A DNA stretch of 64,000 bases, from contig CM059431.1 in NCBI GenBank assembly GCA_030390025.1, positions 120,716,001-120,780,000 of the forward strand, in the 5' to 3' direction. The DNA comes from Squalus acanthias (Eukaryota). Below the pieces are notes generated by a model that was given only the letters and a program-made list of their open reading frames with translations, searched no databases and was not told where the DNA came from. Made by a program: the position numbers and the translations under genes. The stretch's first letter is position 1, and each line of letters begins with the position of its first letter. This document shows, one piece after another, positions 1 to 62,700 of this stretch.

Positions 1-1
1 G

Positions 2-1177
2 GAAATTATAGCAGAGTTGGAGAAACATGCAAAGACGGTAAATGCCCTGATTAGGGAAGATCGGAATGCATCCGATCAAGCTGCGCAGAACGAGGTGTGC
101 GTGCTTTACGGGGCGTGGTTACTGGGCGAGGGCCGCAGTAATTTGGAGGATTTAAAACAAGGTTTGGTTCCGTCCTGGATAAGTAACAAACACCTGCGGG
201 CGCTCCACCCTTTTCAGAACGCATTAAGTCCGTGCCAGCTCAGGCTAGCTTCAGAAGCATACCCAGTCCCCGTGGACTGCGGACGATCAAACCATACTAT
301 TATGGGAATAGTATTACGCATGCCGGTTTTGGGCGACACAGCAAAGCCCGCCCCGGTGTATCGGGTAGAGAACATTGGTGTCATTCAGGGGGGAGCCCAC
401 ATTCGTTATGCAGCGGTTCCACCTTACGTCATCCGCTGGGAGCAAACGATGACAGGTACAGATCTCTCTGGTTGTCGTGGCAGGGGAGCACACATAATAC
501 TGTGCCCCCAGCACTTGAATGCCTTTTTAACACCACAGTGCGGGTTCAGAACGACTGGCGCCAAGTCCATGAATTGCACCATGGAGGCAATGGCACAAGA
601 TCATGTGCCTCCGCAGGTAGCATACGTCGGGGGTGGAACATATTGTGTTACCACTGCAGCGCAACACTACCAGCATGGAAACCATAGCCGGTGTCCGGTG
701 AGTGACAGCAGTTTTTGTTTTAAACCCAGGGCGGAAGTTCAAGTAGCACAACAGCGAATTATCCCAATCCCTGAACCATCCACTGTTCATCTCACAGTAA
801 AAGAGAATTTCACCGACTTGCAGCGATTCGTCGCGCATTTTGGATACCTCATTCCCCCTCTCCCTGAACACCTCACCAAGCTTTTAAATGCCGTCGCGGT
901 ATCACAGAAACATTTTTACACATTAGAACAGAAAACTGTCGAAATAGGGACAGACATTCTGGATATAGTAGTTCCACCGTGGTGGAATCTGTTCACTAAT
1001 ATTGAAGTGCCTTCATGGATCAGAATAGCCTCCCACATTTTAGTCGTATGCCAAGTTTTCATTGTAGTGTACCTATTGGTCGTACATTGTAAAAGAGACA
1101 AGCGCCTCACCAAGCATGAAAACACGGGAGAGTGGCGAGAACGTTACGTGCGTGTGCACGATGAAAGCACCGTGTGA
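2..1177 (+). CDS. env: Envelope fusion glycoprotein, C-terminal part (cut by window edge), with intact TM anchor and cytoplasmic tail
   Basis: Open from the window start; near-identical to the copy 2 env; Cys-rich ectodomain with N-glycosylation sequons, hydrophobic IASHILVVCQVFIVVYLLVVHC, basic tail ending DESTV. Confidence 0.9.
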   Translation, partial: EIIAELEKHAKTVNALIREDRNASDQAAQNEVCVLYGAWLLGEGRSNLEDLKQGLVPSWISNKHLRALHPFQNALSPCQLRLASEAYPVPVDCGRSNHTIMGIVLRMPVLGDTAKPAPVYRVENIGVIQGGAHIRYAAVPPYVIRWEQTMTGTDLSGCRGRGAHIILCPQHLNAFLTPQCGFRTTGAKSMNCTMEAMAQDHVPPQVAYVGGGTYCVTTAAQHYQHGNHSRCPVSDSSFCFKPRAEVQVAQQRIIPIPEPSTVHLTVKENFTDLQRFVAHFGYLIPPLPEHLTKLLNAVAVSQKHFYTLEQKTVEIGTDILDIVVPPWWNLFTNIEVPSWIRIASHILVVCQVFIVVYLLVVHCKRDKRLTKHENTGEWRERYVRVHDESTV

Positions 1178-1628
1178 TCGGAAAATGGCGTCACTCCCGC
1201 TCGCCACGTGCGCCGCGGAAGTGTGTACTCGATCATGATTTTTCAGAGATTGTAAATACGTTGGGAACTCGACATGTTTTAAGAGTTGGTGTTGATTATT
1301 TTGGTGATGGTGTTACAGTTAAAAATGATTGTTTGGTTTTGGGTTTTGTTTTTCCTTTCCCTGAATAAAAGATGAATATACAGGTGATACGAGAGGCATC
1401 GGCCTGGTTACGCCGGGAAGGAAAACAAGTGGTGTAAGTTTAAGGGCAAATAATGCCTACGGTGATATAAAATGTAATTTTCTTGGGAAATAAGGACGAC
1501 ACAGAGACCCTAGCTAGGTTAAAATTATGGGATTAATTTGCTGGATTCGGAGAGAAATCGAGATAATATTGCTCACCACTATGATTTTTGATACGATAAG
1601 CGGAGTTATTCGCATCAACAGGAGGGAC

Positions 1629-3257
1629 TGTAGAATTCGCAATATATCGCGATTTTATTAATAAGGAGAAAACACAGAGTTTCGTTCAAACAGCTTTTAT
1701 TTCAGCAGAATGCTGCCAGGTTTAAAGTGGACACAAGCAGCCTGTAAAATGGCCGCCGCACCTCGTGACAGAACATTCTAGACTTTTCAACAGGCAGACA
1801 AGATGGCGTTCCAATAAACATTTGTGCAAGATCGATTAAGATTCAGCACAGTGAAGATAATACACGAGACATTATGGGTTTGCAGTATACACATAAATAC
1901 TGAAATCGGTCTCCCAGGTACAAATGAAAGCCATTGTACCGAGTAATCAAGGGCCCATCCAAATGACATTAATATGTAAAATCCCAACGACTCTACGATG
2001 AGAGAGCCGTTAACAGGTAGTTATACAAAACACTTGGAAGCCCCACAACCCCTCCAGGGAGAACACCGACCGATTTAACAATGGGAGAAATATTAACAGG
2101 TACTCAGACATTTACGAGTAGCCCCGAAACCCATTAAGAACGGAGATCACCCATACAAGACATTTGAGCGCCAGACCCTAAACAAAAGAATGGACATTAA
2201 GGTTGGGCGGGAAACGGAAGATTTTGCACTATAATTGCAGGCTCCAAACCGTCCATCTTTCTCTTATCCGATCGACTCGTAACCTCGTGGCTGCTCCTGT
2301 GTACTCGTAGTCGGGCTCCTGCTTGCCTGTTGACTCTTTGAAAAAGACTGTTGAACTTTCTGATCCGTTCGGATCTACCTCGTGTCGCGTAACGAAGACC
2401 TATGTTGGTAACTGGCAGCGGAACCAAAGGCCCGAGATGAGATGAGATGAGATGAGATGAGATGAGAAGAGAGGAAGACCATATCCATCGCCACGGTCAG
2501 TAAATCCCGACCGCGCCTGTAGGTCGAACAGCCAAGTTTTCCTTGCCAGGAAGACTTCTTCGAACTTGCAAAGAACATATCACATCGATGATATTGACAA
2601 CTGTGCTCGGAAAAGTACCTGTTAAACCAACCAACACAGGTCTTCATCACAGCAGACGGTCCAGCCTGCTAGCCGGAGCAGCAGAAGCAAGTAAACAAGT
2701 GGGACCAGGAGATCTCCTGACCGACACGTGGGTGCTGCGGTGAAAAACATCCGATCAGCTATTCGGAATTTCTCCGAGTTATCACGAGTGGTGAGCACGA
2801 GTCTCGAAATCCTACGAATCTAGTTAGGATAGATATTGATAGGGGAGGGTTTAAGGATTAAGGATATTTGTAATGTGTGCCCCTATTTACTGTGTGCCGT
2901 TCGTTCCTCGTTTCCCTAAGATCGACTATATAACTGCTTGTAAGATTGTACTGTCATTAATCTGTGCTTATGACATGTATTTCATAATCTTAAGTATCAT
3001 GCAATAAAGATTTTCCATTTCGTACCATTCAACCGAGTCTACATGAGTTTCATCTCCATTACTGCTCTCGCATCTAAGTCCAGTGTCTAGAACCGTAAGG
3101 GCGAGTGATTCGAACCACTCACAGGTGTGTCTAGTGTTCCCAGACTGGCTGGAGACCAGAACAGGCAACAAGGCCTAGACCCGCACTGACATACAGGCTG
3201 CACAGAGCCGCGTGAATCTCACAGGCTGCGAGACACGCAGGGTCAGAATCCCTTACA
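1629..3257 (+). repeat. 3' LTR of copy 1 (1629 bp)
   Basis: Starts TGTAGAATTCGC and ends CCCTTACA; homologous to 51681-53382 with indels; AATAAA at 3003-3008; (GAGAT)6 at 2434-2463. Confidence 0.93.
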
Positions 3258-4503
3258 GCTCCCGACCTCATTACAGCCTTGGTCCAAACATGGACAAAGG
3301 AGCTGAATTCCAGAGGTGAGTTGAGAGTGACTGCCCTTGACATCAAGGCAGCATTGGACCGAGTGTGGCATCAAGGAGCCCGAGTAAAACTGAAATCAAT
3401 GGGAATCGGGTGGGGGAAATGCTCCACTGGCTGGAGTCATACCTAGCACAAAGAAAGATGGTTGTGGTGGTTGAAAGGCAATCATCACAGCCCCAGGACA
3501 TTGCTGCAGGAGTTCCTCAGGGCAGTGTCCTATGCCCAACCACCTTCAGCTGCTTCATCAATGACCTTCCCTCCAACATAAGGTCAGAAATTGGGATGTT
3601 CGCTCATGACTGCACAGCATTCAGTGCCATTCGCAACTCCTCAGATAATGAAGCAGTCCATGCCCGCATGCAACAAGACCTGGACGACGTTCAGGCTTGG
3701 GCTGATAAGTGGTAGGTAACATTCGCACCACAGAAGTGCCAGGCAATGACTATCTCCAACAAGCGAGAGTCTAACCACCTCTTCATGACATTCAACGGCA
3801 TTACCATCGCCGAATCCCCCACCATCAACATTCTGGGGGTCATCATTGACCAGAAACTTAACTGGACCTGCCACATAAATACTGTGGCAAAAAAGCAGGT
3901 CAGAGGCTAGGTATTCTGTGGTGAGTGTCTAACCTCCTGACTCCTCAAAGCCTTTCCACCATCTACAAGGCACAAGTAAGGAGTGTGGTGGAATACTCTC
4001 CACTTGCCTGGATGAGTGCAGCTCCAACAACACTCAAGAAGCTCGACACCATCCAGGACAAAGCAGCCCATTTGATTGGCACCCCATCCACCACCTTAAA
4101 CATTCACTCCCATCCACCACCGGTGTTCTGTGGGTGCAGTGTGTACCATCTACAAGATGCACTGCAGAAACTCGTCAAGGCTTCTTCGGCAGCACCTTCC
4201 AAACCCATGACCTCTTCCACCTAGAAGGACAAGGGCAGCAGGCGCATGGGAACACCACCACCTCCAAGTTCCCCTCCAAGTCACACACCATCCTGAGTTA
4301 GAAGTATTTTGCCGATCCTTCATCGTCGCTGGGTCAAAATCCTGGAACTCCCTACCTAACAGCACAGTGGGAGTACCTTCACCACAGACTGCAGCAGTTC
4401 AAGAAGGCGGCTCACCACCACCTTCTCAAGGGCAATTAGGGATGGGCAATAAATGCTGACCTTGCCAGCGACGCCCACATCCCATAAACGAATTAAAAAA
4501 AAA
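3258..4503 (+). mobile_element. CR1/L2-group LINE, 3' part (degenerate RT plus 3' tail)
   Basis: GVPQGSVLCPTTFSCFINDL and FAHD (FADD-like) RT motifs with stops and frameshifts; tail ...GCCAGCGACGCCCACATCCC followed by an A-run. Confidence 0.85.
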
Positions 4504-15349: not shown

Positions 15350-17160
15350 AAGAAACATAGAAACATAGAAAAATAGGAGCAGGAGTAGGTCATTTGACCC
15401 TTCGAGCCTGCTCCGCCATTCAATATGATCATGGCTAATCCTCTATCTCAATACCATATTCCCACTCTCTCCCCATACCCCTTGGTGCCTTTTGTGTCTA
15501 GAAATCTATCTATCTCCTACTTAAATATATTCAGTGACTTGGCCTCCACAGACTTCTGTGGTAGAGAATTCCACAGGTTCACCACCCTCTGAGTGAAGAA
15601 ATTTCTCCTCATCTCAGTCCTAAATGTCCTACCCCGTATCCTGAGACTGTGACCCCTCGTTCTAGACCCCCCAGCCAGGGGAAACATCCTCCCTGCATCC
15701 AGTCTGTCTAGCCCTGTCAGAATTTTATATGTTTCAATGAGATCCCCTCTCAATCTTCTAAACTCTAGTGAATACAGGCCTAGTCGACCCAATCTCTCCT
15801 CATATGACAGTCCTGCCATCCCAGGAATCAGTCTGGTGAACCTTCGCTGCACTCCCTCTATGGCAAGTATATCCCTTCTTAGGTAAGGAGACCAAAACTG
15901 CACACAGTACTCCAGGTGTGGTCTCACCAAGGCCCTGTACAACTGTAGTAAGACATCCTTGCTCCCGTACTCAAATCCTCTTGCAATGAAGGCCAACATA
16001 CCATTTGCCTTCCTAACTGCTTGTTGCATCTGCATGTTTGCTTTCAGTGACTGGTGTACAAGGACACCCAGGTCCCTCTGTACATCAACATTTCCCAATC
16101 TATCACCATTTAAATAATACGCTGCCTTTCTGTTTTTCCTACCGAAGTGGGTAACTTCACATTTATCCACGTTATACTGCATCTGCCATGTATTTGCCCA
16201 CTCACTCAACTTGTCTAAATCGCCTTGAAGCCTCTTTGCATCCTCCTCACAACTCACAATCCCACCTAGTTTTGTGTCATCAGCAAACTTGGAAATATTA
16301 CATTTGGTTCCCTCATCCAAATCATTGATATATATTGTGAATAGCTGGGGCCCAAGCACTGTTCCCTACGGTACCCCACTAGTCACCGCCTGCCACCCCA
16401 AAAAAGACCCATTTATTCCTACTCTCTGTTTCCTGTCTGTTAACCAATTTTCAATCCATGCCAGTATATTACCCCCAATCCCATGTGCTTTAATTTTGCA
16501 CACCAACCTCTTATGTGGGACTTTATCAAAGGCCTTCTGAAAATCCAAATACACCATATCCACTGGTTCTCCTTTATCTATTCTACTGGTTACATCCTCA
16601 AAAAACTCCAGTAGGTTTGTCAAACACGATTTCCCTTTCATAAATTCATGTTGACTTTGTTTAATCCCATTGATATTTTGTTATCACATCCTTTATAATA
16701 GACTCTAGCATTTTCCCTACTACTGATGTTGGGCTAACTGGTCTGTCGTTCCCTGTTTTCTCTCTCCCTCCTTTTTTTAAATAGTGGGGTTACATTTGCC
16801 ACCCTCCAATCTGCAGGAACTGTTCCATAATCTATAGAATTTTGGAAGATGACAACCAATGCATCCACTATTTCCATGGCTACCTCTTGTAGTACTCTGG
16901 GATGCAGATTATCAGGCCCTGGGGATTTATCGGCTTTCAGTCCCATTAATTTCTCCAGCACTATTTTTTTACTAATCCTAATTTCCTTTATTTCCTCCTC
17001 CTCACTAGACCCTTGGTTCCCTCGCACTTCTGGGAAATTATTTGTGTCCTCTTCCGTGAAGACAGAACCAAAGTATTTGTTTAATTGCTCTGCCATTTCC
17101 TTGTTCCCCATTATAAATTCTCCCGTTTCTGACTGTAATTCTCCTGTTTCTGACTGTAAG
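15350..17160 (-). mobile_element. CR1 LINE, 5'-truncated, RT domain with frameshifts
   Basis: KSPGPDNLHPRVL, YLDFQKAFDKVPH, SGVP, GPQLF, KFADDTKL and RPHLEYC motifs; short tandem-repeat tail at ~15350-15370. Confidence 0.93.
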
Positions 17161-51339: not shown

Positions 51340-51680
51340 GCAGCAATAACCTGTATTTATGTAGCAAATTTAACTTTAGAATACGTACTCAAGGTGCTGC
51401 ACCAGAGCATGATCAGACAAAAATTGAGAGAGCCAAAGAAGAAAATATTTTAATATTAATATTAAATATTAAAAGAAGTGACTCAAAATTAGGTCAAAGA
51501 GGTAGGTTTTAATGAGGGCTTTGAAGGGGGAGAAAGAGGTGGAGACAGAAAGATTTAGAGAGGGAATTCCAGAGTTTAGGGCCTAGATGGCTGAAGTCAC
51601 GGTCAGGAATGGTGGAGCAAAAGGAAGTGGGGCTTACATCACAGGCCAGAGTTGGAGGAACGCAGATGTCTTAGAGGATT
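51340..51680 (-). mobile_element. L2 LINE 3' part (left flank of the provirus)
   Basis: L2-type tail; sequence continues across the GATT TSD into 61171 onward. Confidence 0.65.
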
Positions 51681-53382
51681 TGTAGAATTCGCAATATATC
51701 ACGATTTTATTAATAAGGAGAAGAACACATAGTTTCGTTCAAACAGCTTTTATTTCAGCAGAATGCTGTCAGGTTTTCAAAGTGGACACAAGCAGCTTGT
51801 AAAATGGCCGCCACGCCTCGTGGCAGAACATTCTAGACTTTTCGACAGGCAGACAAGATGGCGTTCCAATAAACATTTGTGCAAGATCGATCAAGACTCA
51901 GCACATTTAAGATAATACACGAGACATCATGGGTTTACAGTATACACATAAATACTGAAATCGGTCTCCCAGGTGCGAATAAGGGCTATTGTACCAAGTA
52001 ATCAAGAACCCATCCAAAGACATTAATATGTAAAATCCCAACGACTCTACGATGAGAGAGCCGTTAGCGGGTAGTTACAGAAAACATTTGGAAGCCCCAA
52101 AACCCCTCCAGGGAGAACACCGACCGATTAAACAATGGGAAAAGTATTAACAGGTACTCAGACAGTTACGAGTATCCCCGAAACCCATTAAAACGAAGAT
52201 CACCCTATACAAGAAATTTGAGCGCCAAACCCTAACAAAAGAAAAGACATTAAGGTTGGGCGGGAAAAGGGAGGATTTTGCACTATAACTGCAAGCTCCA
52301 ACCGTCCATCTTTCTCTTATCCTCTTATTCGGTTGACGTTTATCCTCGTGGCTGCTCCTGTTGCTCTTATCCTTTCGACTCCTTGCCGCCTGCCTCGTGT
52401 CTCTGCCTCTTGCAGCTTTTAAAGACTGTTGAACTTTACGATCCGCTCGGATCTACCTCGTGGCGTGCCGCGAAGATCTGTGTGGAACTGGGCTCTGAAG
52501 CCTTGAAGCGGGCGCACCATCCCGAGAAGTCGGTAAACGGTGTTGGAACCGAAGGCCCGAGATGAGATGAGATGAGATGAGATGAGAAGAGAAGAAGACC
52601 ATACGTATCGCCACGGTCAGTAAGCTCCGACCGCGCCTGTAGGTCGAATAGACACTTTCCTTGCCAGGAAGACTTCTTCGAATTTTACAGAACTGCCAGG
52701 AAGACTATTCTTCGAATTTTATCGTATCCGTGCGAGGGCACAGGAAGACTCTTCTTTGAGCAGTGTCGGAACTCCGAGGACAACACAGATCTTCATGACA
52801 GCAGACGTTCCAGCCTGCTAGCCGGAGCAGAAACGAGTAAACAAGTGGGGTACAGAGACCCCTGATCGACACGTGGGTGCTGCGGTGAAAAACATCTGAT
52901 CAGAGTTTTCGGAATTCTCCGAGTTATCACGAGTGGTGAGCATGAGTCTCGATCCTACAAATCTAGCTTAGGGCAGATATTGATAGGGGAGGGTTTAAGT
53001 TTTAAGGATAATTGTAATGTGTGCCCCCATTTACGATGTGTCGTTCGTTCCTCGTTTCCCTGAAATTAGTTACATAACTGCGTGTAAGATTATACTGTCA
53101 TTAATCTGTGCTTATGACATGTATTTCGTAATCTTAAATAATATGCAATAAAGATTTTCCATTTCGTACCATTCAACCGAGTCTACCTGAGTTTTATCTC
53201 CATTACTGCTCTCGCATCTAAGTCCAGTGTCAGAACCGTAAGGGCGAGTGGGTCGAACCACTCACAGGTGTCTAGTGCTCCCAGACTGGCTGGAGACCAG
53301 AACAGGCAACAAGGCCTAAACCCGCACTAGCATCCAGGCTGCACAGAGCCACACGAATCTCACAGGTTCAGAAACCCTTACA
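51681..53382 (+). repeat. 5' LTR (1702 bp)
   Basis: TGTA...TACA termini; direct repeat of 59469-61170. Confidence 0.97.
52258..52288 (+). promoter_or_regulatory. Putative LTR core promoter (GC box plus TATA-like element)
   Basis: GGGCGG at 52258-52263 and TATAA at 52284-52288, conserved in all three LTRs; YY1-like AAAATGGCCGCC (51801) and CAAGATGGCG (51854) upstream. Confidence 0.5.
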
Positions 53383-53386
53383 GAAA

Positions 53387-55193
53387 ATGGCGACCGCGGC
53401 AGGACGCTGGCAGCGAGAGGGTAATGTGTTAGACTTTGGTATGAATGTACGAAATGTCATGCAAGAGAAAATAGCAGATTATGTGTTCGAAAAAGTAAAT
53501 TTGACTAAGAAATGGATAAGTGACCTGTTAGCGGATAAGAGTCCACTAGAGGCAGCCGAGAGGTGGACAGATAGTAAGGAACATAAAAAGACAGTCGAGA
53601 AAGCGGTCTGGTTAATGTGTTATAAAAGGCAGGTCCAGATTTCAAACCAGGTCATTACAGCGCAAACAGCTCGGATCAGGCATTTAGAGGAGGAAATGGA
53701 CGAGAAGGTCACTGGGGGGGGAGTTGCTCATTAGGAATTTAAGTGCGTTGCACCGAGAACGCCAGGAAATCACCAGTCACCATAAAGCAAAAATAGATTA
53801 CCTCAAGTGCCAGGTCACTGAGGCAAAGTTAAGTGAGGGCAGACTAAAGGAACGATGTGCCCGCCAAGCTGCCCAAATAAAAGCCCAGGAAGAGAGCTTA
53901 ACGGGGGTTAGGGCGGCATTTAAGATGGCCCTTGAGGATAAGTTTCAGGGGGCCGATCATAGCATTTGCCAAAAGGAGATAGAGCACCTTAAAAGGGCCG
54001 TGAACAAAGCGCACGGCATAGTGTGCCTTATCAGTCCGTCAGCACACCAGCCACTAGTAGATGAGGAGTTTCAGAAATTCCCACCCAATAAAGCAAAGGA
54101 AGTATTAGCCACTACGCCCTCCGCGCCACCCAGCTATTCGGAAACCTGGGTAAGGGAGGAAGTAGTAGAAGAAACGAAAGAGCCCACTGAGGGAGAAGTG
54201 GAAAAGGGACCGTTGTGTCCGGTTACGGGTATAAAAAGGGGCCCAAACAGAAACGGTGGGGAACAAGGAGATCTCCTCAACCAGCTTGTGTTGCCTCACA
54301 GCTCACACCAGCTGAGGGTTATGATAAGTCACGTACGGAAGCTGACCGAGGCAGACGACCCTTCCGTACATTTCAGGGAAGTTGAGCAAACCGCAGCCAT
54401 TAACGGCTGCGACGATGGGGAAACAGCAAAGATGCTGTTATTTTCATTAGGTAGTTCGATCCTTCAGTGTCTCTCGGACGAGAGCAAGAGAGGAACCAAA
54501 AAATATGAGGCACTAAAAAATGAGGTCCTAGAAGTATTGGGGACGGACGATGAAGGTCCGTTTGTTAGAGTGGGACAGACAGTGCAGATGGAGGGAGAAC
54601 CCCCGAAGGTTTTCGCCGACAGGCTGTGGCCAGTATACCAGCGCAGCTGCCCAGGTGCGCCAGAGCGCGACGATGTGGAAGGCGTCGGTTTAGCTCATTG
54701 GCTCAGGTGTATAGTAGCCAACAGTTTGCCAGCCGTCAGAGAGCAGGCAAAAGCGTGGTTTGATCCCACTGACCCCAACATTACGGAGGAGTCGGTCTTA
54801 AATCGACTCACGGTAGGATACCGCAATATAAGGGGTATGGGAACACGTCCCCTTAAAGGAAAAGTACATGAGGTACGACCCGCAGCCCCGGCTCAAAAGG
54901 AGTGGCATCAGGAGGGTAACCGCGCCCCGCAGGCAAGTAATGCTTATTACGGGTGTGGGAGGACAGGGCACTGGCGCAAGAACTGCAGGAACCCTTGGAA
55001 GGATTCCAGGGATAAAAATCCCGCAGCCCGAGCCCAGATGCCTGTCTCTGTTAGGGAAGCTAGTGCACCCACCCCTCCCGACGACCTCGAAACAGTGTTG
55101 GGAGCCATGCGCAACTTCATGAGTGCGCATGGAAAAGTGGCGGTTGCTACCGGCCCCGTAGGTGCCACAGGCCCGTCTAACAATACCCAATGA
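53387..55193 (+). CDS. gag: Gag-like polyprotein (~600 aa if one G is removed from the G8 run at 53714-53721)
   Basis: ORFs 53387-53734 and 53724-55193 join on a 1-nt deletion; N-terminal coiled coil, PSAPPSY late domain, helical capsid-like region, zinc knuckle YYGCGRTGHWRKNC with the first Cys replaced by Tyr. Confidence 0.85.
53388..53405 (+). promoter_or_regulatory. Primer-binding site, tRNA-Arg (TCG/CCG type)
   Basis: TGGCGACCGCGGCAGGAC is the reverse complement of the vertebrate tRNA-Arg 3' end GTCCTGCCGCGGTCGCCA as recalled; it starts 5 nt after the LTR. Confidence 0.88.
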
Positions 55194-56339
55194 CTAGAGC
55201 CCACGCAGCCTGCCTACCTGTGTCCTTTTAAAAGACACGCACAGGAGGGGGTCTCCTGTGAGGAGGCCAGGTTAAAAGAGCAGGCCTTGCGGGAGGAGAA
55301 CGCCCGCTTAATAGGGAAAATAGATGGGCTAGAAGGGCAGCTTAGAGAGCAGGCCCTGCGGGAGGAGAACGCCCGCTTAATGGGAAAGTTAGACGTGCTC
55401 AGGCTAGAAGGGCAGCTTAGAGAAATAAAAGCAGCCTACCAGGTAGCCAGAAGCAGGGATTTAAATCAGTGCAAACTGTACAAGCCAGGTGCACAAGGGA
55501 AAACCACAGGGGCAAACCCTGCGAGTGGGGACTCGCAGCCCCAGGTAGGACCACAGGGCACACAGGCAGGAAGAGCAGCTTGCATCAGGGAAGGAGGCAT
55601 CCTGGAAAATTGTGAAACATTTTTGTGGGGTTGGGAGTCAGATGAGGGAGAGTTCCCGGAACTCGAGTCAGATGAGGATAGTGATGAGGACGAGTGGGAA
55701 TCGGGGAACGCAAGGGTCGCCCCCGATTCAGGTATAGGGAGGACAGGAGCTGCAGATAGAGATCCACACAGGGTGGACACCGAGGCTGCAGGTCCCGAAC
55801 ACAGGAGGGAGGAGCTAGGGGAGGCGGAGCCAGCCGCTGTGGGACCACAGGGCGTGACGGTGAAAACCTCAGAGCCCGAGCCGCCCGCCTTGAACGTCCT
55901 GCCCTCGAGAGAGGTAGGGATTGCGAGTGAAGGGCCGCCTGCTGGGCCGAGCAGGGCGGTGCCACAAGCTGCAAGTCCCGAGGTCAGGGAGGCGGAGTCA
56001 GGGGAGGCGGAGCCAGCGACTGTGGTGGGACCACAGGTCGTCCCGGTGGAAGTCTCGGAACCCGGTCCGTCGGTCCTGGGATTCCTGCCCCCGACAACTC
56101 CTCGTAGGTCAAGTCGAGCACCCCAGCCCAGGAAGATGTGGTCATGTCCCCAGACTGCCCCAAGGCGCAGGCTTAAGGTTAAGGCAGCCCAGGTAGGGCC
56201 CAGTCCCATCGCAGCAGCAACAGGCTGCGGCAGATCAAAGGAAGGGGTCAGTGCAGCAACAGGCTGCGGCAGATCAAAGGAAGGGGTCAGTGCCCTCCCA
56301 CCATCGGGAAGAACTCGCAGCAGCCTTCTCAGAATTTAA
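55194..56339 (+). CDS. ORF-X: in-frame readthrough extension of gag at the pol position, unknown function (~381 aa)
   Basis: No stop between the gag TGA and TAA 56337-56339; starts LEPTQPAYLCPF; no D(T/S)GA, YxDD, HHCC or DDE motifs seen. Confidence 0.75.
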   Translation, partial: LEPTQPAYLCPFKRHAQEGVSCEEARLKEQALREENARLIGKIDGLEGQLREQALREENARLMGKLDVLRLEGQLREIKAAYQVARSRDLNQCKLYKPGAQGKTTGANPASGDSQPQVGPQGTQAGRAACIREGGILENCETFLWGWESDEGEFPELESDEDSDEDEWESGNARVAPDSGIGRTGAADRDPHRVDTEAAGPEHRREELGEAEPAAVGPQGVTVKTSEPEPPALNVLPSREVGIASEGPPAGPSRAVPQAASPEVREAESGEAEPATVVGPQVVPVEVSEPGPSVLGFLPPTTPRRSSRAPQPRKMWSCPQTAPRRRLKVKAAQVGPSPIAAATGCGRSKEGVSAATGCGRSKEGVSALPPSGRTRSSLLRI

Positions 56340-56632
56340 AGGGGCCGCCCTGAGAACGGGCGGCGCTGTACAGTAATAAGTTTAGGATAAGTTTTAAGGT
56401 CATAGTTTAAGTTTACGTTTCTAAGTTTAAGGTTAAGAATAAGGTTAAGAATAAGTTTATAGTTTTAAAATCGGTTTAAGTTTGTAGTTTAATTTTAACA
56501 GAATATGATAAAATGATGGGAGTTTTAGATAGGTTTAGTTAAAGTTTATTCAGCGAACATGGAAGTTTCCGTGAGGCGAGGTCAGGGGACCCGCTCACCC
56601 TTTACAAAAGCCAGAGACTCTTGCGAGGCTGG

Positions 56633-56656
56633 CTAACTCATTCTATCTGATCACAG
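56633..56656 (+). promoter_or_regulatory. Putative env splice acceptor (branch point plus CAG)
   Basis: CTAAC-TCATTCTATCTGAT-CACAG, 13 nt upstream of the env ATG at 56670. Confidence 0.65.
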
Positions 56657-56669
56657 GAACCAAGGAAGG

Positions 56670-59020
56670 ATGGAACGAATTCTAGTATTGCTCGCGGCAA
56701 TCGGATGTGGGTTGGCCTATCGAGGCCGCACCAAGGATGTCGTGGTGTTTGGATGCTCCGGGGACACGGCCCCCATCGCGGTGGATGGGACCGGAAGACG
56801 GGAGGCTGAGGAGACCACCACCTATTTCCACAAGGGAAGGTGGCCAGGATGGCTGGGAACGAACTCAACGGAGTATTCCAGCACATCGGGGTTTGCCTAC
56901 CAAGAGACTTCTTTAATGTGCCCCAAAGTAAGGATCATCGCACCCAGGATCAGCGTCACCGTCGGCAAACGGATTTGTTTGACTTGTAATGGGAATGTCC
57001 CATTGAGCCGATGGTGGTGGCTGCGAAAGCTGAGCAAAAACATGAGGAACTCTTCGGTCGAGTGGGAACGACTGGGTAATAATACCCATCGGACAATTAC
57101 GGGGACAAACGGACAAGTGAGAGTCTGTTGGGACAAATGGTGGGAACCGGATGAGGGAATTTATGTACGCATGTGGGGGTCAAAGTACGCGTGCCCCAAA
57201 GGCATCTCCATATTTTTCATTAATCAATGGCAGGATAACGGACAGGGAATGAGGTGGGATGCGAGCACCAGGGGGTGCGGAGCCCCATACTCTTCGATCC
57301 CGGTAAATGCCACTGAACTCATTACGCGCCCACGCAAAGCCCCGCCCACGATTCCGGTGGTTCTAGCTAAAGAGGAAGGGTGCCCTAAAACCAGTAAGGG
57401 ACCCGGGAATGGTTTGGTACTGGTCCCCACAGACCAGATACTATTTCAGGGGGTACATTACGCGGTGGCCTCGGTGGTTTTAAATCTCACCGAGGTGCGG
57501 TTACCAGAGTGGCGCCCCAAAAAGACGGAACAGTTGTATCAGGTCCTGTTGACCAAGATGTTCAGACAATTTTACGAATTCGATTTCGCGGTAATTGATA
57601 AAACAAGTTTGTACACCGCACCACATGAAGTTTTGGATCAATTAGGGAGGCAAAGAAGGGGTGTAGTGAACGACGCGTTCACTGCTTTTAACACGGGTAC
57701 ATCTGTGGTCAACGCTCTAGATAGTGTGGAGCTGCAGACCCAGATTAATGGTTTAAAGACGCAATTAAAAGACATTCTAACAGATGAAAATAAAGTGGTT
57801 GGGTCGGGTTTACATGAGGACCAAGCCATGACTCTCCATTTAAAGGAAATTATAGCAGAGCTGGAGAAACACGCGAGAACGGTAAATGCCCTGATTAGGG
57901 AAGATCGGAATGCATCCGATCAAGCTGCGCAGAATGAGGTGTGCGTGCTTTACGGGGCGTGGTTACTGGGCGAGGGCCGCAGTAATTTGGAGGATTTAAA
58001 ACAAGGTTTGGTCCCGTCCTGGATAAGTAACAAACACCTGCGGGCGCTCCACCCTTTTCAGAACGCATTAAGCCCGTGCCAGCTCAGGCTAGCTTCAGAA
58101 GCATACCCAGTCCCCGTGGACTGCGGACGATCAAACCATACTATCATGGGTATAGTACTACGTATGCCGGTTTTGGGCGACACAGCAAAGCCCGCCCCGG
58201 TGTATCGGGTAGAGAACATTGGTGTCATTCAGGGGGGAGCCCACATTCGCTATGCAGCGGTTCCACCCTACGTCATCCGCTGGGAGCAAACGATGACAGG
58301 TACAGATCTCTCTGGTTGTCGTGGCAGGGGAGCACACATAATACTGTGTCCCCAGCACTTGAATGCCTTTTTAACACCACAGTGCGGGTTCAGAACGGCT
58401 GGCGCCAAGTCCATGAATTGCACCATGGAGGCAATGGCACAAGATCATGTGCCTCCGCAGGTAGCATACATCGGGGGTGGAACATATTGTGTTACCACTG
58501 CAGCGCAACACTACCAGCATGGAAACCGTAGCCGGTGTCCGGTGAGTGACAGCAGTTTCTGTTTCAAACCCAGGGCGGAAGTTCAAGTAGCACAACAGCG
58601 AATTGTCCCAATCCCTGAACCATCCACTGTTCATCTAACAGTAAAAGAGAATTTCACCGACTTGCAGCGATTCGTCGCGCATTTCGGATACATCATTCCC
58701 CCTCTCCCTGAACACCTCACCAAGCTTTTGAAAGCCATCGCGGTGTCACAAAAACATTTTTACACACTAGAGCAGAAAACTGTCGAAATAGGGACAGACA
58801 TTCTGGATATAGTAATTCCACCGTGGTGGAATCTGTTCACCAATATGAAGTGCCTTCATGGATCAGAATAGCCTCCCACATTTTAGTCGTATGCCAAGTT
58901 TTTATTGTAGTGTACCTATTGGTCGTACATTGTAAGAGAGGCAAACGCCTCACCAAGCACGAAAACACGGGAGAGTGGCGAGAACGTTACGTGCGCGTGC
59001 ACGATGAAAGCACCGTGTAA
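56670..59020 (+). CDS. env: Envelope glycoprotein (class I fusion type), frameshifted near 58846 before the TM anchor
   Basis: Signal peptide MERILVLLAAIGCGLA, Ig-like segment, furin site RQRR at 57648-57659, fusion peptide and heptad repeat; AATATGAA here versus AATATTGAA in copy 1. Confidence 0.9.
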
Positions 59021-59459
59021 TCGTAAAATGGCGTCACTCCCGCTTGCCACCTGCGCCGCGGAAGTGTTGTACTCGACCGTGATTTTTCGAAAACTGTAAA
59101 TACGTTTGGAACTCGACATGTTTTAGGAGTTGGTGTTGATTATTTTGGTGATGGTGTTGTAGTTAAAGATGATTGTTTGGTTTTGTTTTGCTTTTCCTTT
59201 CCCTAAATAAAAATATGAATATACAGGTGATACGAGAGGCATCGGCCTGGTTAAGCCTGGAAGGAAAACAAGTGGTGTAAGTTTAAAGGCAAATAATGCC
59301 GACGGTGCTATAAAATGTAATTTTCTTGGGAAATAAGGACGACACAAAAACCCTAGATAGTTTAAGTTATGGGATTAATTTTCTGGATCTGGAGAAATCA
59401 AGATAATATTGCTCACCACTATACTTTTTGATACGATAAGCGGAGTTATTCGCATCAAC

Positions 59460-59468
59460 AGGAGGGAC
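59460..59468 (+). promoter_or_regulatory. Short polypurine tract
   Basis: AGGAGGGAC directly before the 3' LTR; identical at 1620-1628. Confidence 0.8.
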
Positions 59469-61170
59469 TGTAGAATTCGCAATATATCACGATTTTATTA
59501 ATAAGGAGAAGAACACATAGTTTCGTTCAAACAGCTTTTATTTCAGCAGAATGCTGTCAGGTTTTCAAAGTGGACACAAGCAGCTTGTAAAATGGCCGCC
59601 ACGCCTCGTGGCAGAACATTCTAGACTTTTCGACAGGCAGACAAGATGGCGTTCCAATAAACATTTGTGCAAGATCGATCAAGACTCAGCACATTTAAGA
59701 TAATACACGAGACATCATGGGTTTACAGTATACACATAAATACTGAAATCGGTCTCCCAGGTGCGAATAAGGGCTATTGTACCAAGTAATCAAGAACCCA
59801 TCCAAAGACATTAATATGTAAAATCCCAACGACTCTATGATGAGAGAGCCGTTAGCGGGTAGTTACAGAAAACATTTGGAAGCCCCAAAACCCCTCCAGG
59901 GAGAACACCGACCGATTAAACAATGGGAAAAGTATTAACAGGTACTCAGACAGTTACGAGTATCCCCGAAACCCATTAAAACGAAGATCACCCTATACAA
60001 GAAATTTGAGCGCCAAACCCTAACAAAAGAAAAGACATTAAGGTTGGGCGGGAAAAGGGAGGATTTTGCACTATAACTGCAAGCTCCAACCGTCCATCTT
60101 TCTCTTATCCTCTTATTCGGTTGACGTTTATCCTCGTGGCTGCTCCTGTTGCTCTTATCCTTTCGACTCCTTGCCGCCTGCCTCGTGTCTCTGCCTCTTG
60201 CAGCTTTTAAAGACTGTTGAACTTTACGATCCGCTCGGATCTACCTCGTGGCGTGCCGCGAAGATCTGTGTGGAACTGGGCTCTGAAGCCTTGAAGCGGG
60301 CGCACCATCCCGAGAAGTCGGTAAACGGTGTTGGAACCGAAGGCCCGAGATGAGATGAGATGAGATGAGATGAGAAGAGAAGAAGACCATACGTATCGCC
60401 ACGGTCAGTAAGCTCCGACCGCGCCTGTAGGTCAAATAGACACTTTCCTTGCCAGGAAGACTTCTTCGAATTTTACAGAACTGCCAGGAAGACTATTCTT
60501 CGAATTTTATCGTATCCGTGCGAGGGCACAGGAAGACTCTTCTTTGAGCAGTGTCGGAACTCCGAGGACAACACAGATCTTCATGACAGCAGACGTTCCA
60601 GCCTGCTAGCCGGAGCAGAAACGAGTAAACAAGTGGGGTACAGAGACCCCTGATCGACACGTGGGTGCTGCGGTGAAAAACATCTGATCAGAGTTTTCGG
60701 AATTCTCCGAGTTATCACGAGTGGTGAGCATGAGTCTCGATCCTACAAATCTAGCTTAGGGCAGATATTGATAGGGGAGGGTTTAAGTTTTAAGGATAAT
60801 TGTAATGTGTGCCCCCATTTACGATGTGTCGTTCGTTCCTCGTTTCCCTGAAATTAGTTACATAACTGCGTGTAAGATTATACTGTCATTAATCTGTGCT
60901 TATGACATGTATTTCGTAATCTTAAATAATATGCAATAAAGATTTTCCATTTCGTACCATTCAACCGAGTCTACCTGAGTTTTATCTCCATTACTGCTCT
61001 CGCATCTAAGTCCAGTGTCAGAACCGTAAGGGCGAGTGGGTCGAACCACTCACAGGTGTCTAGTGCTCCCAGACTGGCTGGAGACCAGAACAGGCAACAA
61101 GGCCTAAACCCGCACTAGCATCCAGGCTGCACAGAGCCACACGAATCTCACAGGTTCAGAAACCCTTATA
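59469..61170 (+). repeat. 3' LTR (1702 bp; terminal CA changed to TA)
   Basis: Direct repeat of the 5' LTR with three differences seen by eye. Confidence 0.97.
60935..60940 (+). terminator. LTR polyadenylation signal
   Basis: AATAAA conserved in all three LTRs (3003, 53147, 60935), about 230-250 nt from the LTR end. Confidence 0.65.
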
Positions 61171-62700
61171 GATTTTAGAGCTGGAGGAGGTTAAGATAGG
61201 GAGGGGTGAGGCCATGGAGGGATTTGAACACAAGGATGAGAATTTTTAAATTGACGCAATGCTGGACCGGGAGTTAATGTAGGTCAGTGAGCACAAGGGT
61301 TGATAGGTGAATGGGACTTGTTGCGGGTTAGCATATGGGCAGAAAAGTTTAGGATGAGCTCAAGTTTAAGGAGTGTGGTAGATGGGAGACCAGCCAGGAG
61401 AGTATTAGAATTGGCTGGAGGTAACAAAAGCATTGATGAGGGTTTCATCAGCAGAGCAGTTGAAACAGTGGTGGATGATGGGTGGTGGTATGGAGGCAGA
61501 TGTAGGCGGTCTTTGTGATGAAGAGAATATGGTGTCAGAAGTTCAGCTCAGTGTCAAATAGGACACCGTAGTTGTGAGCAGTCTGAGATAGTGGGATAGT
61601 GCTCCACACGCACAGTCACATAGGCTGTAATTTGTGGCTTTGATTAGCATCGTTCCAATGCTGTGGTAAGAGTGGAAACCTGATTGGAGAGATTCAAACA
61701 TGGAGTTGCAGGAAAGATGGTCATGTATTTGGGAGCTGACAACACATTTGAGGACTTGAGAGAAAAGGGAGTTTGGACATACGGTGACAGAAGGGTCAAG
61801 GGTTTTTTTTGAAGAGGGGAATGCTGATGGCAGATTTGAAAGGGAGGTGACAATAACTGAGGAGAAGGAACCATTTACTAGGTCAGCTAGCACGTGGGGC
61901 CAGGAAGTGAAGTTGGGTGGTCAGCTGTTTAGTGGAAAAAGGGGCGAGAGAGCAGAAGAGGGCATGAGTGGAGATAAGAAAGAAACTAGAGATAGATGCT
62001 AGTTCAGGAATAGGGCAGGGGGGGAATCTTTGGGAAAGCTTGGCTTGGTGGGCACGGGAAAGGGATGGATGAAGCAGAGGCAGTTGAATAGATGGTCTCA
62101 ATTATAGTGGCAAAAAAGTTCATGAGCTCCTCGCATTTGTTGTTGGAGGTGAATGTGGAGGGGGCAGGGGAGAGTGGTTAAAGGAGATGGTTGATAGTGA
62201 AGAGAAGCCAGTGGTTATCTTTGCATTCTAGGCTGATCCTGGAGTAGTGAACATTTCTGGCAGAGGAGAGCAGCACCCAGTGGTGCTTGATGCGATCAAG
62301 CCAGATCTGGCAATGAATGACAAAACCAATGTGCCATATATGTTCAAGTCTGTGCTCCTTAGACGTAAGGGAGCAAAGATGATGGCCGTACCAGGGGGAA
62401 TGACCAGGGTGGGAGAGAGGAAATGTTTCACTGGGATCAAGGGCATCAAAGGTGGAAGTGATGGAGTGATTGAGCAGATCAACACCTGCAGATATATTGT
62501 GAGGAACAGAGGGCTAAAGGCTAGACAATTAGAAGTTTTAAAGAGAGTGGCAAGATTAGCACCCAGCACGTGCTCTGGGTGGAAAGGTCAGCAGGTGAGG
62601 AGGATGGCAGTTGGAGTTGCTGCTCGTAAGGAGGCAGCGACAAGTGCCTCGATGGATAAATGCAAGTCAGAGGACGTCATGACCAAACTGTTCAGTTCTG
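61171..62700 (-). mobile_element. Degenerate L2 LINE (right flank of the provirus)
   Basis: NSMFESLQSGFHSYHS resembles the L2 QSGFR..HSTETAL motif. Confidence 0.7.

Follow-up and report, generated by a model that had tools for sequence, protein, structure and literature searches.

A pol-less variant of a multi-copy dogfish endogenous retrovirus, probably mobilised in trans by its full-length relatives

Mouse ETn elements with MusD, together with deleted IAP elements, are non-autonomous derivatives of endogenous retroviruses (ERVs) that are mobilised in trans. In the ETn- and IAP-type cases, most or all of the coding capacity is gone, env included. Another parallel is offered by retroviral genomes that cannot replicate alone and are carried along by a helper, for example acute transforming viruses and defective interfering genomes. 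The element of the dogfish Squalus acanthias described here would resemble ETn/MusD and IAP in its internal deletion, in the retention of LTRs, primer-binding site (PBS) and polypurine tract (PPT), and in a high copy number reached through the proteins of autonomous relatives. It differs from them in having lost only pol: gag is open in 9 of 14 and env in 12 of 15 sampled pol-less copies. By analogy, it may share with helper-dependent defective retroviruses the replacement of part of pol by foreign sequence, the use of helper enzymes and recombination with the helper. Unlike in acute transforming viruses, the insert is only 236 bp long and contains no recognisable host gene, and unlike defective virus stocks, the variant is known from germline copies and not as an exogenous virus.

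Two retroviral groups are of interest for comparison. Snakehead retrovirus (SnRV), like the dogfish element, uses a tRNA-Arg primer site. The RT motifs DISNGFWSI and LPQGFH.SP.IFHQ are common to SnRV and the dogfish family; by eye, about 93 of the 193 positions agree. The nearest Pol and Env relatives of the family occur in frogs and cartilaginous fishes. This clade of unclassified Orthoretrovirinae includes SnRV-like frog ERVs and the elephant shark lineage I ERVs, and the simple gag-stop-pol read-through layout given for it in the relevant passages of the literature is also that of the dogfish family (PMC12193657, PMC4131045, PMC4422223). The stop context differs, being UAG GGC in the SnRV entry of PMC13517186 and UGA CUA G in the dogfish family; accessory ORFs are present in SnRV, whereas none is evident in the dogfish element. 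With lokiretroviruses, as characterised in the pertinent sections of Wang and Han 2020 (PMC7947760), the family shares the F-type Env architecture, a dual RNase H, a long coiled-coil region preceding Gag (predicted here) and lower-vertebrate hosts. It differs from them in an RT that clusters apart from the Loki-Aro anchor, in other RT motifs and in the stop between gag and pol, and also in its Env, which lacks a PF00523 sequence match and is longer at the N-terminus by about 230 residues. For cartilaginous fishes, the Orectolobiformes row in the supplement of the same paper counts lokiretroviruses in 0 of the 3 genomes that were screened (PMC7947760).

The window, which is the whole stretch of DNA analysed, comprises 64,000 nucleotides (GCA_030390025.1, contig CM059431.1, positions 120,716,001 to 120,780,000). 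It contains the following features.

1..3262, + strand: 3′ portion of another, older pol-less copy (L032), with the 3′ end of env; the 5′ part lies upstream of the window
1629-3258, + strand: 3′ LTR of the second copy, ending directly before the target-site duplication (TSD)
3259-3262: target duplication GCTC of the second copy, adjoining the 3′ LTR end
51677..51680, no strand: 5′ TSD copy GATT, 4 bp, the same as at 61171-61174 (direct reading)
51681..53382, + strand: 5′ LTR, 1702 bp, TG...CA, with AATAAA at LTR position 1467 (self-BLAST)
53387..55193, + strand: gag, split here by an extra base; stop TGA at 55191-55193
53388..53405, + strand: PBS, 18 nt, complementary to the tRNA-Arg(TCG) 3′ end plus CCA
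55191..55199, + strand: gag stop context TGA CTA GAG, a type II read-through motif
55194..55225, + strand: first 11 pol codons, start of ORF-X; matched by the pol-bearing relative up to 55225
55226..55461, + strand: filler, 236 bp, in frame, standing where 3617 bp of pol was
55462..56339, + strand: low-complexity C-terminal tail of Pol, making up the final ~290 ORF-X codons; aligns collinearly with the Pol C-terminus of the relative
56670..59020, + strand: env; the open frame spans 56670-58871 (733 codons), and the anchor and tail are encoded up to 59020 in a different frame
59460..59467, + strand: polypurine tract AGGAGGGA (direct reading); the 3′ LTR begins one base further on
59469..61170, + strand: 3′ LTR, 1702 bp, TG...CA (self-BLAST and direct reading)
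61171..61174, no strand: 3′ TSD copy GATT, 4 bp (direct reading)

An earlier sequence-only reading of this DNA had named LTRs, a tRNA-Arg PBS, a PPT and a 4-bp TSD, and all of these were read in the window. The LTRs of the pair differ at 3 of 1702 positions, two of them CpG sites (99.82% identity, self-BLAST). Genomic tRNA genes ending in the PBS complement were found at 424 sites with a 22-nt pattern, compared with 0 in the control, and ARAGORN called tRNA-Arg(tcg) in 2/2 of the fetched pattern sites, supporting the primer assignment. In the interior, gag and an in-frame TGA are followed by an open frame of 381 codons that occupies the place of pol, and then by env. The second family member that had been noticed is present as well: it begins upstream of the window, ends at window position 3258 and, when followed upstream, is also pol-less. 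This copy is placed in a local duplication with repeated host flank.

Contrary to what had been supposed, the provirus is not complete. In intact relatives, gag is a single 601-codon frame whose ATG overlaps the PBS. In the window copy, a single surplus base in the G-run 53714-53721 shifts the gag frame (0/14 other copies), and the first Cys codon (54945-54947) of the CCHC knuckle (54945-54986) has become Tyr (0/16 other copies). A one-base deletion near 58845 cuts the env frame before the membrane anchor (0/29 other copies). Exact 28-mer probes for the G-run insertion, the knuckle Tyr and the env deletion have 1, 2 and 1 genomic sites, respectively. The provirus is a recent insertion of a non-autonomous ERV deletion variant and is itself dead.

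The gag gene carries PSAP/PPSY motifs at 54117-54137. Its zf-CCHC match has E=0.016 in the window copy and 0.0058 in the pol-bearing relative, both under the Pfam cut-off. The shared variants in gag comprise 84 synonymous and 105 non-synonymous changes, with a synonymous share of ~43-45% in each of three thirds. The Gag structure model reached a pLDDT of 42, and a long N-terminal helix before Gag is predicted in it at low confidence. The proposed stop-codon read-through is consistent with the stop context: TGA CTA G, kept in 16/17 aligned copies, belongs to the type II read-through motif class as defined in the corresponding section of PMC13517186. No significant RNA structure was detected downstream of the gag stop.

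The env gene encodes an RQRR cleavage motif at 57648-57659. Its shared variants are distributed over the codon positions as 19/21/99, with 112 synonymous and 40 non-synonymous changes; judged by these variants, env is under strong purifying selection family-wide. The AF2 model of the Env of an intact relative has a pLDDT of 70-95 across most of residues 230-650, and every PDB match listed by Foldseek was an F protein of a paramyxovirus or a pneumovirus (best E=4e-10; target-normalised TM 0.45-0.55). Atlas feature matches to Gypsy/Baculo_F and Fusion_gly clusters scored 0.93-0.95. Pfam Fusion_gly (PF00523) was absent from the window Env and from the reported matches of 27 Env relatives scanned at E<=0.01 or E<=1. 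The predicted structure marks Env as a class I fusion protein that adopts the fold of paramyxovirus F and has ~230 additional residues at its N-terminus, and the earlier designation of env as F-like is borne out by this model.

The frame in the pol position, ORF-X, covers 381 codons (55194-56339) in the same frame as gag, after the TGA. It had been regarded as unrelated to pol. Comparison with the pol-bearing relative (L031+L018), in which gag and the same in-frame TGA precede a Pol of 1508 codons, contradicts this: ORF-X is composed of both ends of Pol and the filler. Homology between the window and the relative breaks at 55225 and resumes at 55462. The 3617 bp missing and the 236 bp present both leave a remainder of 2 modulo 3, and the reading frame is therefore kept. 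The tail corresponds to the Pol region downstream of the integrase SH3-like domain. The translated filler has a heptad-like repeat, and its DNA an internal duplication of ~70 bp; no match was found in the pol-bearing relative and no homolog in the protein database. Pfam recognised no family in ORF-X at E<=1 and no protease, RT, RNase H or integrase family in the window copy, whose gag and env matches were below the cut-off.

Pol-bearing relatives have LTR and PBS in common with the pol-less form, as seen in the one copy read through (C5). Junction probes of 28 nt, with up to 2 mismatches, detected 1101 pol-less and 2174 gag/pol sites at the gag 3′ end (reversed controls 0), and the pol-less form makes up about one third of these junctions. 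The 30 loci compared are the best scorers against the window interior and constitute a non-random sample. Both junctions are common to 16/16 pol-less copies read, which argues against a single post-insertion rearrangement at this locus, and 15 sampled loci (the one read through and 14 more) carry the pol 3′ end. Private 4-bp TSDs were found in 7/7 pol-less copies checked (GATT, GCTC, CTCT, CTTT, AAAA, GGTC and CCAG), and the flanks of these seven are unrelated. In 11/12 pol-less copies the LTR pairs differ by 0.08-1.1%, the twelfth having a chimeric 5′ LTR, while pol-less copies diverge by 3-7% from the window copy. Low LTR divergence within copies and higher divergence between them is the signature of a fresh reverse-transcription cycle for each copy. 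Mapped on an env tree that comprises 30 copies, the pol-less label requires 9 changes compared with a shuffled mean of 10.2, and the AU test rejected pol-less monophyly (delta lnL 212.5, p 0.0008). The mixing in this tree may come in part from gene conversion between genomic copies, as an alternative to co-packaging.

From the junctions, the private TSDs, the young LTR pairs and the interleaved env tree, we infer trans-complementation by its genomic outcomes: very probably, the pol-less variant of this multi-copy ERV was mobilised by the Pol of full-length relatives and recombined with them. The proposal of a non-autonomous lineage that borrows Pol in trans fits well with these data and with the lack of RT and integrase. 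We propose that an ancestor exchanged, in frame, the 3617 bp that code for protease, RT, RNase H and integrase for the 236-bp filler and kept the LTRs, tRNA-Arg PBS, PPT, gag with its stop, 11 pol codons, the unconstrained tail and env. The variant RNA would be transcribed from the LTR and packaged alongside RNA of pol-bearing relatives, whose Pol would reverse-transcribe and integrate it, giving fresh identical LTRs and a new 4-bp TSD at each site. Of the sequencing runs recorded as containing this stretch, none is an RNA run. Template switching between co-packaged RNAs could account for the mixed forms in the env tree despite a single origin of the deletion.

A different origin of the copy number, by segmental or tandem DNA duplication of one rearranged provirus and no retrotransposition in trans, is very improbable. 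Some junction sites on C1 and C2 are 7.7-7.8 kb apart, the length of one interior plus one LTR, so that tandem duplication at the DNA level adds to the 1101. Pol-bearing pairs spaced 11.1 kb and 12.7 kb and the duplicated surroundings of the upstream window copy point in the same direction. Against duplication as the general explanation stand the private TSDs with unrelated flanks, the LTR pairs that are much closer to each other than the copies are to the window copy, and the scatter of junction sites across many chromosomes. It is also unlikely that ORF-X is a functional accessory gene, in which a captured or new coiled-coil filler forms a read-through protein that aids particle competition or interferes with the helper. 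Such a role would agree with the exact in-frame replacement, the heptad-like repeat, the conserved TGA CTA G context, the tail frame open in 11/13 pol-less copies and the filler identity of 98-100% in all 40 genomic places scored (full length, except one over 235/236 bases, of 1462 first-look candidates). However, this identity may merely mirror a young lineage, no filler homolog turned up in the helper element or the protein database, and the same tail is open in 12/15 pol-bearing copies. The shared variants of the tail show no third-position excess (36/26/30), and 31 are synonymous compared with 82 non-synonymous (27% synonymous), so by this measure the tail evolves like neutral sequence. 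The opposite strand is open too, for 289 codons, as expected for G+C-rich low-complexity DNA. ORF-X probably has no gene function of its own; most likely it arose as a by-product of the deletion and is accessible to ribosomes only via gag-stop read-through.

The Pol of the relative contains the Pfam families RVP, RVT_1, RT_RNaseH_2, RNase_H, Integrase_H2C2 and rve. RT trees made with FastTree (114 rows) and IQ-TREE (44 rows), both without SnRV, gave the same order: gypsy-like elements, then a Loki anchor, then the family's own clade with a gamma/epsilon-marked clade (SH-aLRT 99). The family's RT clusters with ERVs of frogs and the coelacanth, adjacent to the gamma/epsilon-type clade. An env-bearing Ty3/Gypsy element of errantivirus-like type, the alternative offered by the sequence-only reading, is extremely improbable. 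F-type Env is typical also of insect errantiviruses, the Atlas matches to Gypsy/Baculo_F clusters reach 0.94-0.95, and a weak Baculo_F match was obtained for one of the Env relatives (E=0.0011, below the cut-off). Nevertheless, the relative's Pol has a degenerate tether (RT_RNaseH_2) plus an added RNase_H, and the tree puts its RT, with support 99, on the side of the dual-RNase-H elements; this domain pair and the placement of the RT on the side of the retroviruses were the grounds for rejecting the Gypsy alternative. Further retrovirus-like traits are the PBS, the 4-bp duplication and the gag-stop-pol read-through, and the RT bit scores against PDB are higher for MLV/XMRV (185-192) than for foamy virus (156-163), Ty3 (132-137) and HIV (55-59). 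By domain content and tree position, the parent family is a retrovirus with dual RNase H.

The label of lokiretrovirus, which would place the family in the lineage sister to all other retroviruses with F-like Env as its hallmark and make the variant a lokiretrovirus-derived satellite, is quite improbable. The modelled F fold of Env speaks for it. So do a short stretch past the fusion peptide that resembles the printed Loki-Xtr Env by eye, the low-confidence helix before Gag, which recalls the 'smc-gag-pol' and 'Spc7-Gag-Pol' labels in the supplement, and the frog, coelacanth, eel and turtle hosts of Pol and Env relatives, which overlap the published host range of lokiretroviruses (PMC7947760). 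A 13-residue RT peptide of the hit P0032 is identical in Loki-Aro in the same supplement, and its 3-row clade is thus anchored as lokiretroviral; a branch with support 99 divides this clade from the family's own clade in both trees. Joining the two was rejected by the AU test (delta lnL 26.6, p 0.006), which concerns one Loki anchor lineage and a group named after a tree was seen. The RTs given in that source for Loki-Xtr, Loki-Xla, Loki-Npa and Loki-Aro have PFGY..N where the dogfish family has LPQGFHNSP, and two Loki polyproteins are labelled there as a single Gag-Pol frame, in contrast to the in-frame stop of the dogfish family; the missing Fusion_gly match also stands against this label. 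From the by-eye comparison with a printed alignment and the literature context, the parent family probably belongs to the snakehead-retrovirus clade. Pol and Env relatives were found in frogs, the coelacanth, an eel, a turtle and cartilaginous fishes.

The provirus under study is bounded by two direct repeats of 1702 bp, which were detected by comparison of the window with itself. The repeats have the termini TG...CA and differ from each other at 3 of the 1702 positions, two of the three differences being CpG transitions, and the 4-bp target duplication GATT is present at both outer ends. At an assumed neutral rate of 1–2e-9 per site per year, a rate not measured in this host, the LTR divergence of 0.18% would mean an age of roughly 0.4–0.9 million years for this copy. 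The first frame of the interior ends at a TGA codon and the same frame stays open beyond it; this continuation, which occupies the position of pol, is called ORF-X.

Features of the provirus in the window
51681–53382: 5′ LTR
53388–53405: primer-binding site (PBS) TGGCGACCGCGGCAGGAC, starting five bases past the 5′ LTR and complementary to tRNA-Arg(TCG)
54117–54137: PSAP and PPSY motifs in gag
55191–55193: TGA ending the first frame (gag)
from this TGA to 56339: ORF-X, 381 further codons in the same frame
56670–58871: third frame (env), 733 codons
up to one base short of the 3′ LTR: polypurine run AGGAGGGA, by direct reading
59469–61170: 3′ LTR

The PBS was examined with a 22-nt genome pattern composed of the PBS complement and the T-loop motif, with the reversed pattern as a control. 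The pattern occurs at 424 genomic sites against 0 for the control, and ARAGORN called tRNA-Arg(tcg) at both of the two sites that were fetched; therefore the primer assignment holds. Many of the 424 sites are arrayed with a period of 1623 bp; on C26 (38.99–42.21 Mb) the genes for tRNA-Arg(TCG), the primer of this family, form extensive arrays of that period. The repeats, the GATT duplication, the tRNA calls and the purine run bear out the cis signals listed in the sequence-only reading (LTRs, tRNA-Arg PBS, PPT and 4-bp duplication). The LTRs, the PBS and the PPT are intact, as is asked of an ERV derivative mobilized in trans. The absence of enzyme motifs noted in the same reading was also found: no Pfam family matches ORF-X at E ≤ 1, and no enzyme family matches the gag or env frames. 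The gag frame gives weak matches below the cut-off, among them a CCHC knuckle, and the env frame gives one such match, to an unrelated family. With all interior frames listed and 3617 bp of pol missing, the window copy has no coding capacity for reverse transcriptase (RT) or integrase.

A search of the genome with the 6086-bp interior of the window copy retrieved 12 copies aligned over the full length with 93–97% identity and a second class of copies that align from interior position 2080 onward only. One copy of the second class, read with 10 kb of its upstream sequence (L031+L018), has the same LTR, PBS, gag and in-frame TGA, followed by a frame of 1508 codons; it is the single pol-bearing copy read through both gag and pol. 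The Pfam domains of its Pol are a retroviral protease, RVT_1, a degenerate RNase H tether, an added RNase_H, an integrase zinc-binding domain and the integrase core. The final ~290 residues are common to this Pol and ORF-X. Homology between the pol-less and the pol-bearing form is lost at window position 55225 and returns at 55462, where 236 bp of the pol-less form, which have no counterpart in the pol-bearing element, replace 3617 bp. Both lengths leave a remainder of 2 on division by three, and therefore the frame is kept. ORF-X had been taken for an unrelated ORF; judged from these alignments, it consists instead of 11 N-terminal codons of Pol, a filler of 78 codons and the low-complexity tail of Pol past the integrase SH3-like domain, the tail being collinear with the 1508-codon Pol. 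The filler is heptad-like with an internal duplication of ~70 bp. Its source was sought with BLASTN and TBLASTN, and neither the pol-bearing element nor the rest of the window gave a match; no homolog was seen among longer proteins, which is weak evidence. Opposite the ORF-X tail lies an open frame of 289 codons (55466–56335, minus strand), which fits G+C-rich low-complexity DNA with few stops in any frame.

Both junctions of the replacement are identical in all 16 pol-less copies read, a set made up of the window copy, its older upstream neighbour, a copy divided between two loci and 13 loci that are full or nearly so; in 15 sampled loci the 3′ end of pol is found instead of the junction. The junction and the filler are unique, and therefore the deletion arose once. 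A left-junction probe (28 nt, up to 2 mismatches) detects 512+589 = 1101 genomic sites, a count that is somewhat inflated by tandem duplication, as follows from junctions spaced 7.7–7.8 kb apart. A gag/pol-junction probe detects 1097+1077 = 2174 sites, and the reversed control of either probe detects 0. These counts were used in place of the first-look candidate counts (1462 filler, 2243 RT, 1695 env and 2135 gag), which are not additive. Private matching 4-bp duplications flank all seven pol-less copies checked (GATT, GCTC, CTCT, CTTT, AAAA, GGTC and CCAG), the LTR pairs within a copy are 0.08–1.1% apart in 11 of 12 pol-less copies, the twelfth having a chimeric 5′ LTR, and the copies diverge from the window copy by 3–7%. 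An autonomous partner is present in the same genome, namely the pol-bearing relative, which shares the PBS, is 93–95% identical in LTR and leader, and encodes PR-RT-RH-IN. It is established retroviral biology that an element without RT and integrase spreads in this manner only through enzymes supplied in trans. The shared junctions, private duplications and near-identical LTR pairs of an element devoid of RT and integrase therefore argue for enzymes supplied in trans. As judged from the genomic outcome, the pol-less RNA would be reverse-transcribed and integrated by the enzymes of the pol-bearing relatives. A helper-dependent pol-less lineage, as envisaged in the sequence-only reading, is well supported by these genomic data; the pol-bearing relative sought there exists, and the upstream neighbour has both pol-less junctions. 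The opposite account, a single post-insertion rearrangement at this locus with a normal pol in all other members, is contradicted by the number of pol-less sites.

The window copy was earlier described as complete. Alignment with sampled copies and counts of exact 28-mers in the genome at three sites revealed lesions in gag and env.

Lesions of the window copy
53714–53721: extra base in a G-run, cutting the first 110 gag codons off the rest; other copies 0/14; exact 28-mer sites 1
54945–54947: Tyr for the first zinc-knuckle Cys; other copies 0/16; exact 28-mer sites 2
near 58845: one-base deletion, env stopping before the membrane anchor; other copies 0/29; exact 28-mer sites 1

The same Tyr-for-Cys state is found in one other genomic copy (C10:117041609–117041636). 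In the window copy the anchor and the cytoplasmic tail of env resume in another frame, to 59020. An uninterrupted gag frame of 601 codons, with its ATG overlapping the PBS, is present in the pol-bearing copy read and in 9 of the 14 pol-less copies. The frame at 53925–55193, previously named gag, is indeed gag, and represents just the portion downstream of the frameshift. The first 190 codons vary like the remainder, with 43–45% synonymous variants in all three parts. An AF2 model of gag from 9 near-identical copies reached a pLDDT of 42, too poor for a fold search, and atlas feature matches to Retrotrans_gag, Ty3_capsid and zf-CCHC clusters (0.93–0.95, with under 170 features in common) serve as no more than leads. 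The gag stop context TGA CTA GAG is retained in 16 of 17 copies. According to passages of PMC13517186, alphaviruses have UGA CUA as their type II read-through context, and UGA CUAG is functional in mammalian genes. A search for a stimulatory structure past the stop found none: the folding of the next 120 nt was no better than that of shuffles in the pol-bearing copy (z +1.28) and only marginally better in the pol-less copy (z −1.84). Read-through of the gag stop is inferred from the layout of the frames.

The pol-less and pol-bearing forms are interleaved in an env tree of 30 copies and 2802 columns, whose loci are the best matches to the window and not a random sample. The pol-less label requires 9 changes on this tree, compared with 10.2 for shuffled labels, and the well-supported branches require at least 4. 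In an AU test the tree with the pol-less copies placed together was rejected (delta lnL 212.5, p 0.0008). The ordinary explanation would be recombination while co-packaged RNAs are reverse-transcribed; the interleaving may instead stem from gene conversion among the copies in the genome. The interleaving lends indirect support to packaging and reverse transcription by helpers. Shared variants were also classified by codon position and coding effect.

Shared variants by codon position (1 / 2 / 3) and synonymous : non-synonymous changes
env: 19 / 21 / 99; 112 : 40
gag: 47 / 46 / 74; 84 : 105
ORF-X tail: 36 / 26 / 30; 31 : 82

These patterns indicate that env has stayed functional as the lineage replicated, and that gag has done so to a moderate degree. 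The shared variants show no amino-acid constraint on the ORF-X tail. The tail frame is still uninterrupted in 11 of 13 copies without pol and in 12 of 15 with pol; for env the corresponding counts are 12 of 15 and 9 of 15.

The sequence relatives of Env are confined to sharks, skates, frogs, coelacanth and an eel. No Pfam family scores above the cut-off in Env or in 27 scanned relatives, save for domains that belong to adjoining parts of host genes. Fusion_gly (PF00523) gave no match for Env at E ≤ 1 (window copy) or E ≤ 0.01 (pol-bearing relative), and it was not reported for the 27 relatives (22 scanned at E ≤ 0.01 and 5 at E ≤ 1). A phmmer search of Env against the PDB gave only weak antibody light-chain-like matches (E about 0.5), and the sole match in a profile search was to the HR2-anchor region of a coronavirus spike (E = 4e-4). 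For the pol-bearing copy, the natural Env of 782 residues was modelled with AF2 from 34 relatives (model m5f7d321dbf33), and the pLDDT is 70–95 across most of residues 230–650. Every PDB match listed by Foldseek is the F protein of a paramyxovirus or a pneumovirus (hPIV3, RSV, Langya, NDV and Nipah); 1ztm, 3rki, 8tve and 3maw were matched with E values of 4e-10 to 1e-8 and a probability of 1.00. The predicted cleavage motif RQRR is followed by the hydrophobic peptide GVVNDxFTAFNTG, and helices span residues 347–444 and 680–711, the second adjoining the anchor, with a hydrophobic stretch within 730–766. On the fold matches of this model, Env is predicted to be F-like. The earlier assignment of an F-like Env thus stands by fold and finds no counterpart by sequence. 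Residues 1 to ~230 are poorly modelled and absent from the eel relative; this extension may be a receptor-binding module joined to the F-like core. Its weak immunoglobulin V-like similarity (residues 1–230 of the Env at L018:2699–5044; window 56670–57360; E about 0.5) is a lead only, and one shark homolog carries the UniRef name "Ig-like domain-containing protein". In other cartilaginous-fish gene models, pieces of Env are fused to Niban-like, zinc-finger, cadherin and F-box proteins (P0002, P0127, P0130 and P0158). These models are probably annotation artefacts across ERV insertions; exonisation is possible.

An F-like Env behind a read-through stop had suggested a lokiretrovirus, with an env-bearing Gypsy element as the alternative. 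The nearest relatives of Pol, 44–51% identical, come from frogs, coelacanth and a turtle. A deep-sea eel match holds verbatim a 13-residue peptide of the Loki-Aro RT, as printed in the Wang and Han supplement (PMC7947760), and a small clade is therefore anchored as lokiretroviral. RT trees were built with FastTree (114 rows) and with IQ-TREE under a mixture model (44 rows), both rooted on single-RNase-H gypsy-like sequences. The Loki-anchored clade branches first, and in both trees the clade of the window family groups with sequences carrying gammaretrovirus-type markers (support 99), beside and not inside the gamma/epsilon-marked clade. An AU test rejected the union of the window-family clade with the Loki anchor (p 0.006), for a group chosen after the tree was seen and a single anchor lineage. 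Lokiretroviral RTs read PFGY..N in the printed rows seen, whereas the RT of the window family reads LPQGFHNSP. The lokiretroviral F-related Env is matched by the window family in fold, without PF00523 by sequence. The lokiretroviral dual RNase H (tether and added domain) is also present in the pol-bearing relative; it is common to all retroviruses and therefore does not discriminate. The lokiretrovirus label is not upheld by the RT trees. A Ty3/Gypsy errantivirus is ruled out by the dual RNase H and by an RT outside the Metaviridae. Against solved structures the RT scores in the order MLV/XMRV > foamy viruses > Ty3 > HIV.

Snakehead retrovirus (SnRV), of an unclassified clade of the Orthoretrovirinae, has a tRNA-Arg PBS, and the PBS of the window family is likewise of the tRNA-Arg(TCG) type. 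The SnRV row of the same printed alignment shares DISNGFWSI and LPQGFH.SP.IFHQ with the window family, about 93 of 193 positions being identical by eye, in a comparison without a tree that includes SnRV. According to the passages seen, the SnRV clade includes ERVs of frogs, fishes and elephant shark (PMC12193657, PMC4131045 and PMC4422223). Literature passages found by keyword contain no statement of an F-type Env for this clade. We read the window family as an SnRV-clade-like orthoretrovirus with an F-type Env; its place in the SnRV clade is putative.

The most interesting feature of the family is an F-type Env that accompanies an RT from outside the lokiretroviruses; it bears on the origin of retroviral envelopes and on how often they were swapped. 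The full reading joins an F-type Env on a non-lokiretroviral lineage (RT with SnRV-like ERVs of frogs, coelacanth and cartilaginous fishes; Env homologs in sharks, skates, frogs, coelacanth and eel) to a pol-less gag-env "satellite" that accounts for roughly one third of the family and still exchanges sequence with its helpers; we hold it tentatively, at rather less than even chances. If it is true, F-type fusogens would have a greater age or a higher mobility among retroviruses than is implied by the lokiretroviruses as the single case. ERV derivatives that depend on a helper are well known, but it seems unusual for one to lose pol alone, keep gag and env mostly open and reach about a thousand copies next to some two thousand with pol. 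In the pol-less lineage one could ask, in a natural setting, whether a defective genome competes better for helper enzymes when it supplies Gag and Env in cis.

The left junction is bridged by contigs that extend 31 letters or more to either side, from runs with three different organism labels; the contig of a fourth has just 22 letters on one side. One of the runs may be the source of the assembly. Loose contig ends at 55462, seen in two runs, carry the 3′ end of integrase as it stands in the pol-bearing form. Among the runs with this stretch, none is recorded as RNA. This comparison covered window 54900–55800 on runs X1, X5, X9 and X10, for which the molecule type is unrecorded, and has no bearing on transcription. 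The near-identical junction contigs may reflect a pol-less variant shared by related species.

Junction sites separated by one pol-less interior and one LTR (7.7–7.8 kb) occur at C1:143657923 / 143665646 / 143673364, C1:204985285 / 204993090 and C2:133593991 / 133601710, and the pol-bearing pairs L014/L015 and L026/L027 are spaced by 11.1 kb and 12.7 kb. Such spacings suggest tandem proviral arrays sharing LTRs. The chimeric 5′ LTR mentioned above belongs to locus L007, where positions 1–430 are 83% identical to its own 3′ LTR and the remainder 98.9%. At the upstream neighbour (L032 2337–3966; window 1629–3262), a full LTR located 10 kb upstream is 99.8% identical to the 3′ LTR of the copy; after it come the host flank that also lies behind the copy (GCTC CCGACC...), ~1.2 kb, a 5′-truncated LTR and the provirus. 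This rearrangement looks like a tandem duplication followed by LTR–LTR recombination in one unit. Elsewhere in the window, an open frame of 282 codons (15517–16365, minus strand) that partially matches RVT_1 (E = 7e-8) belongs to a fragment of a different retroelement, unrelated to this family.
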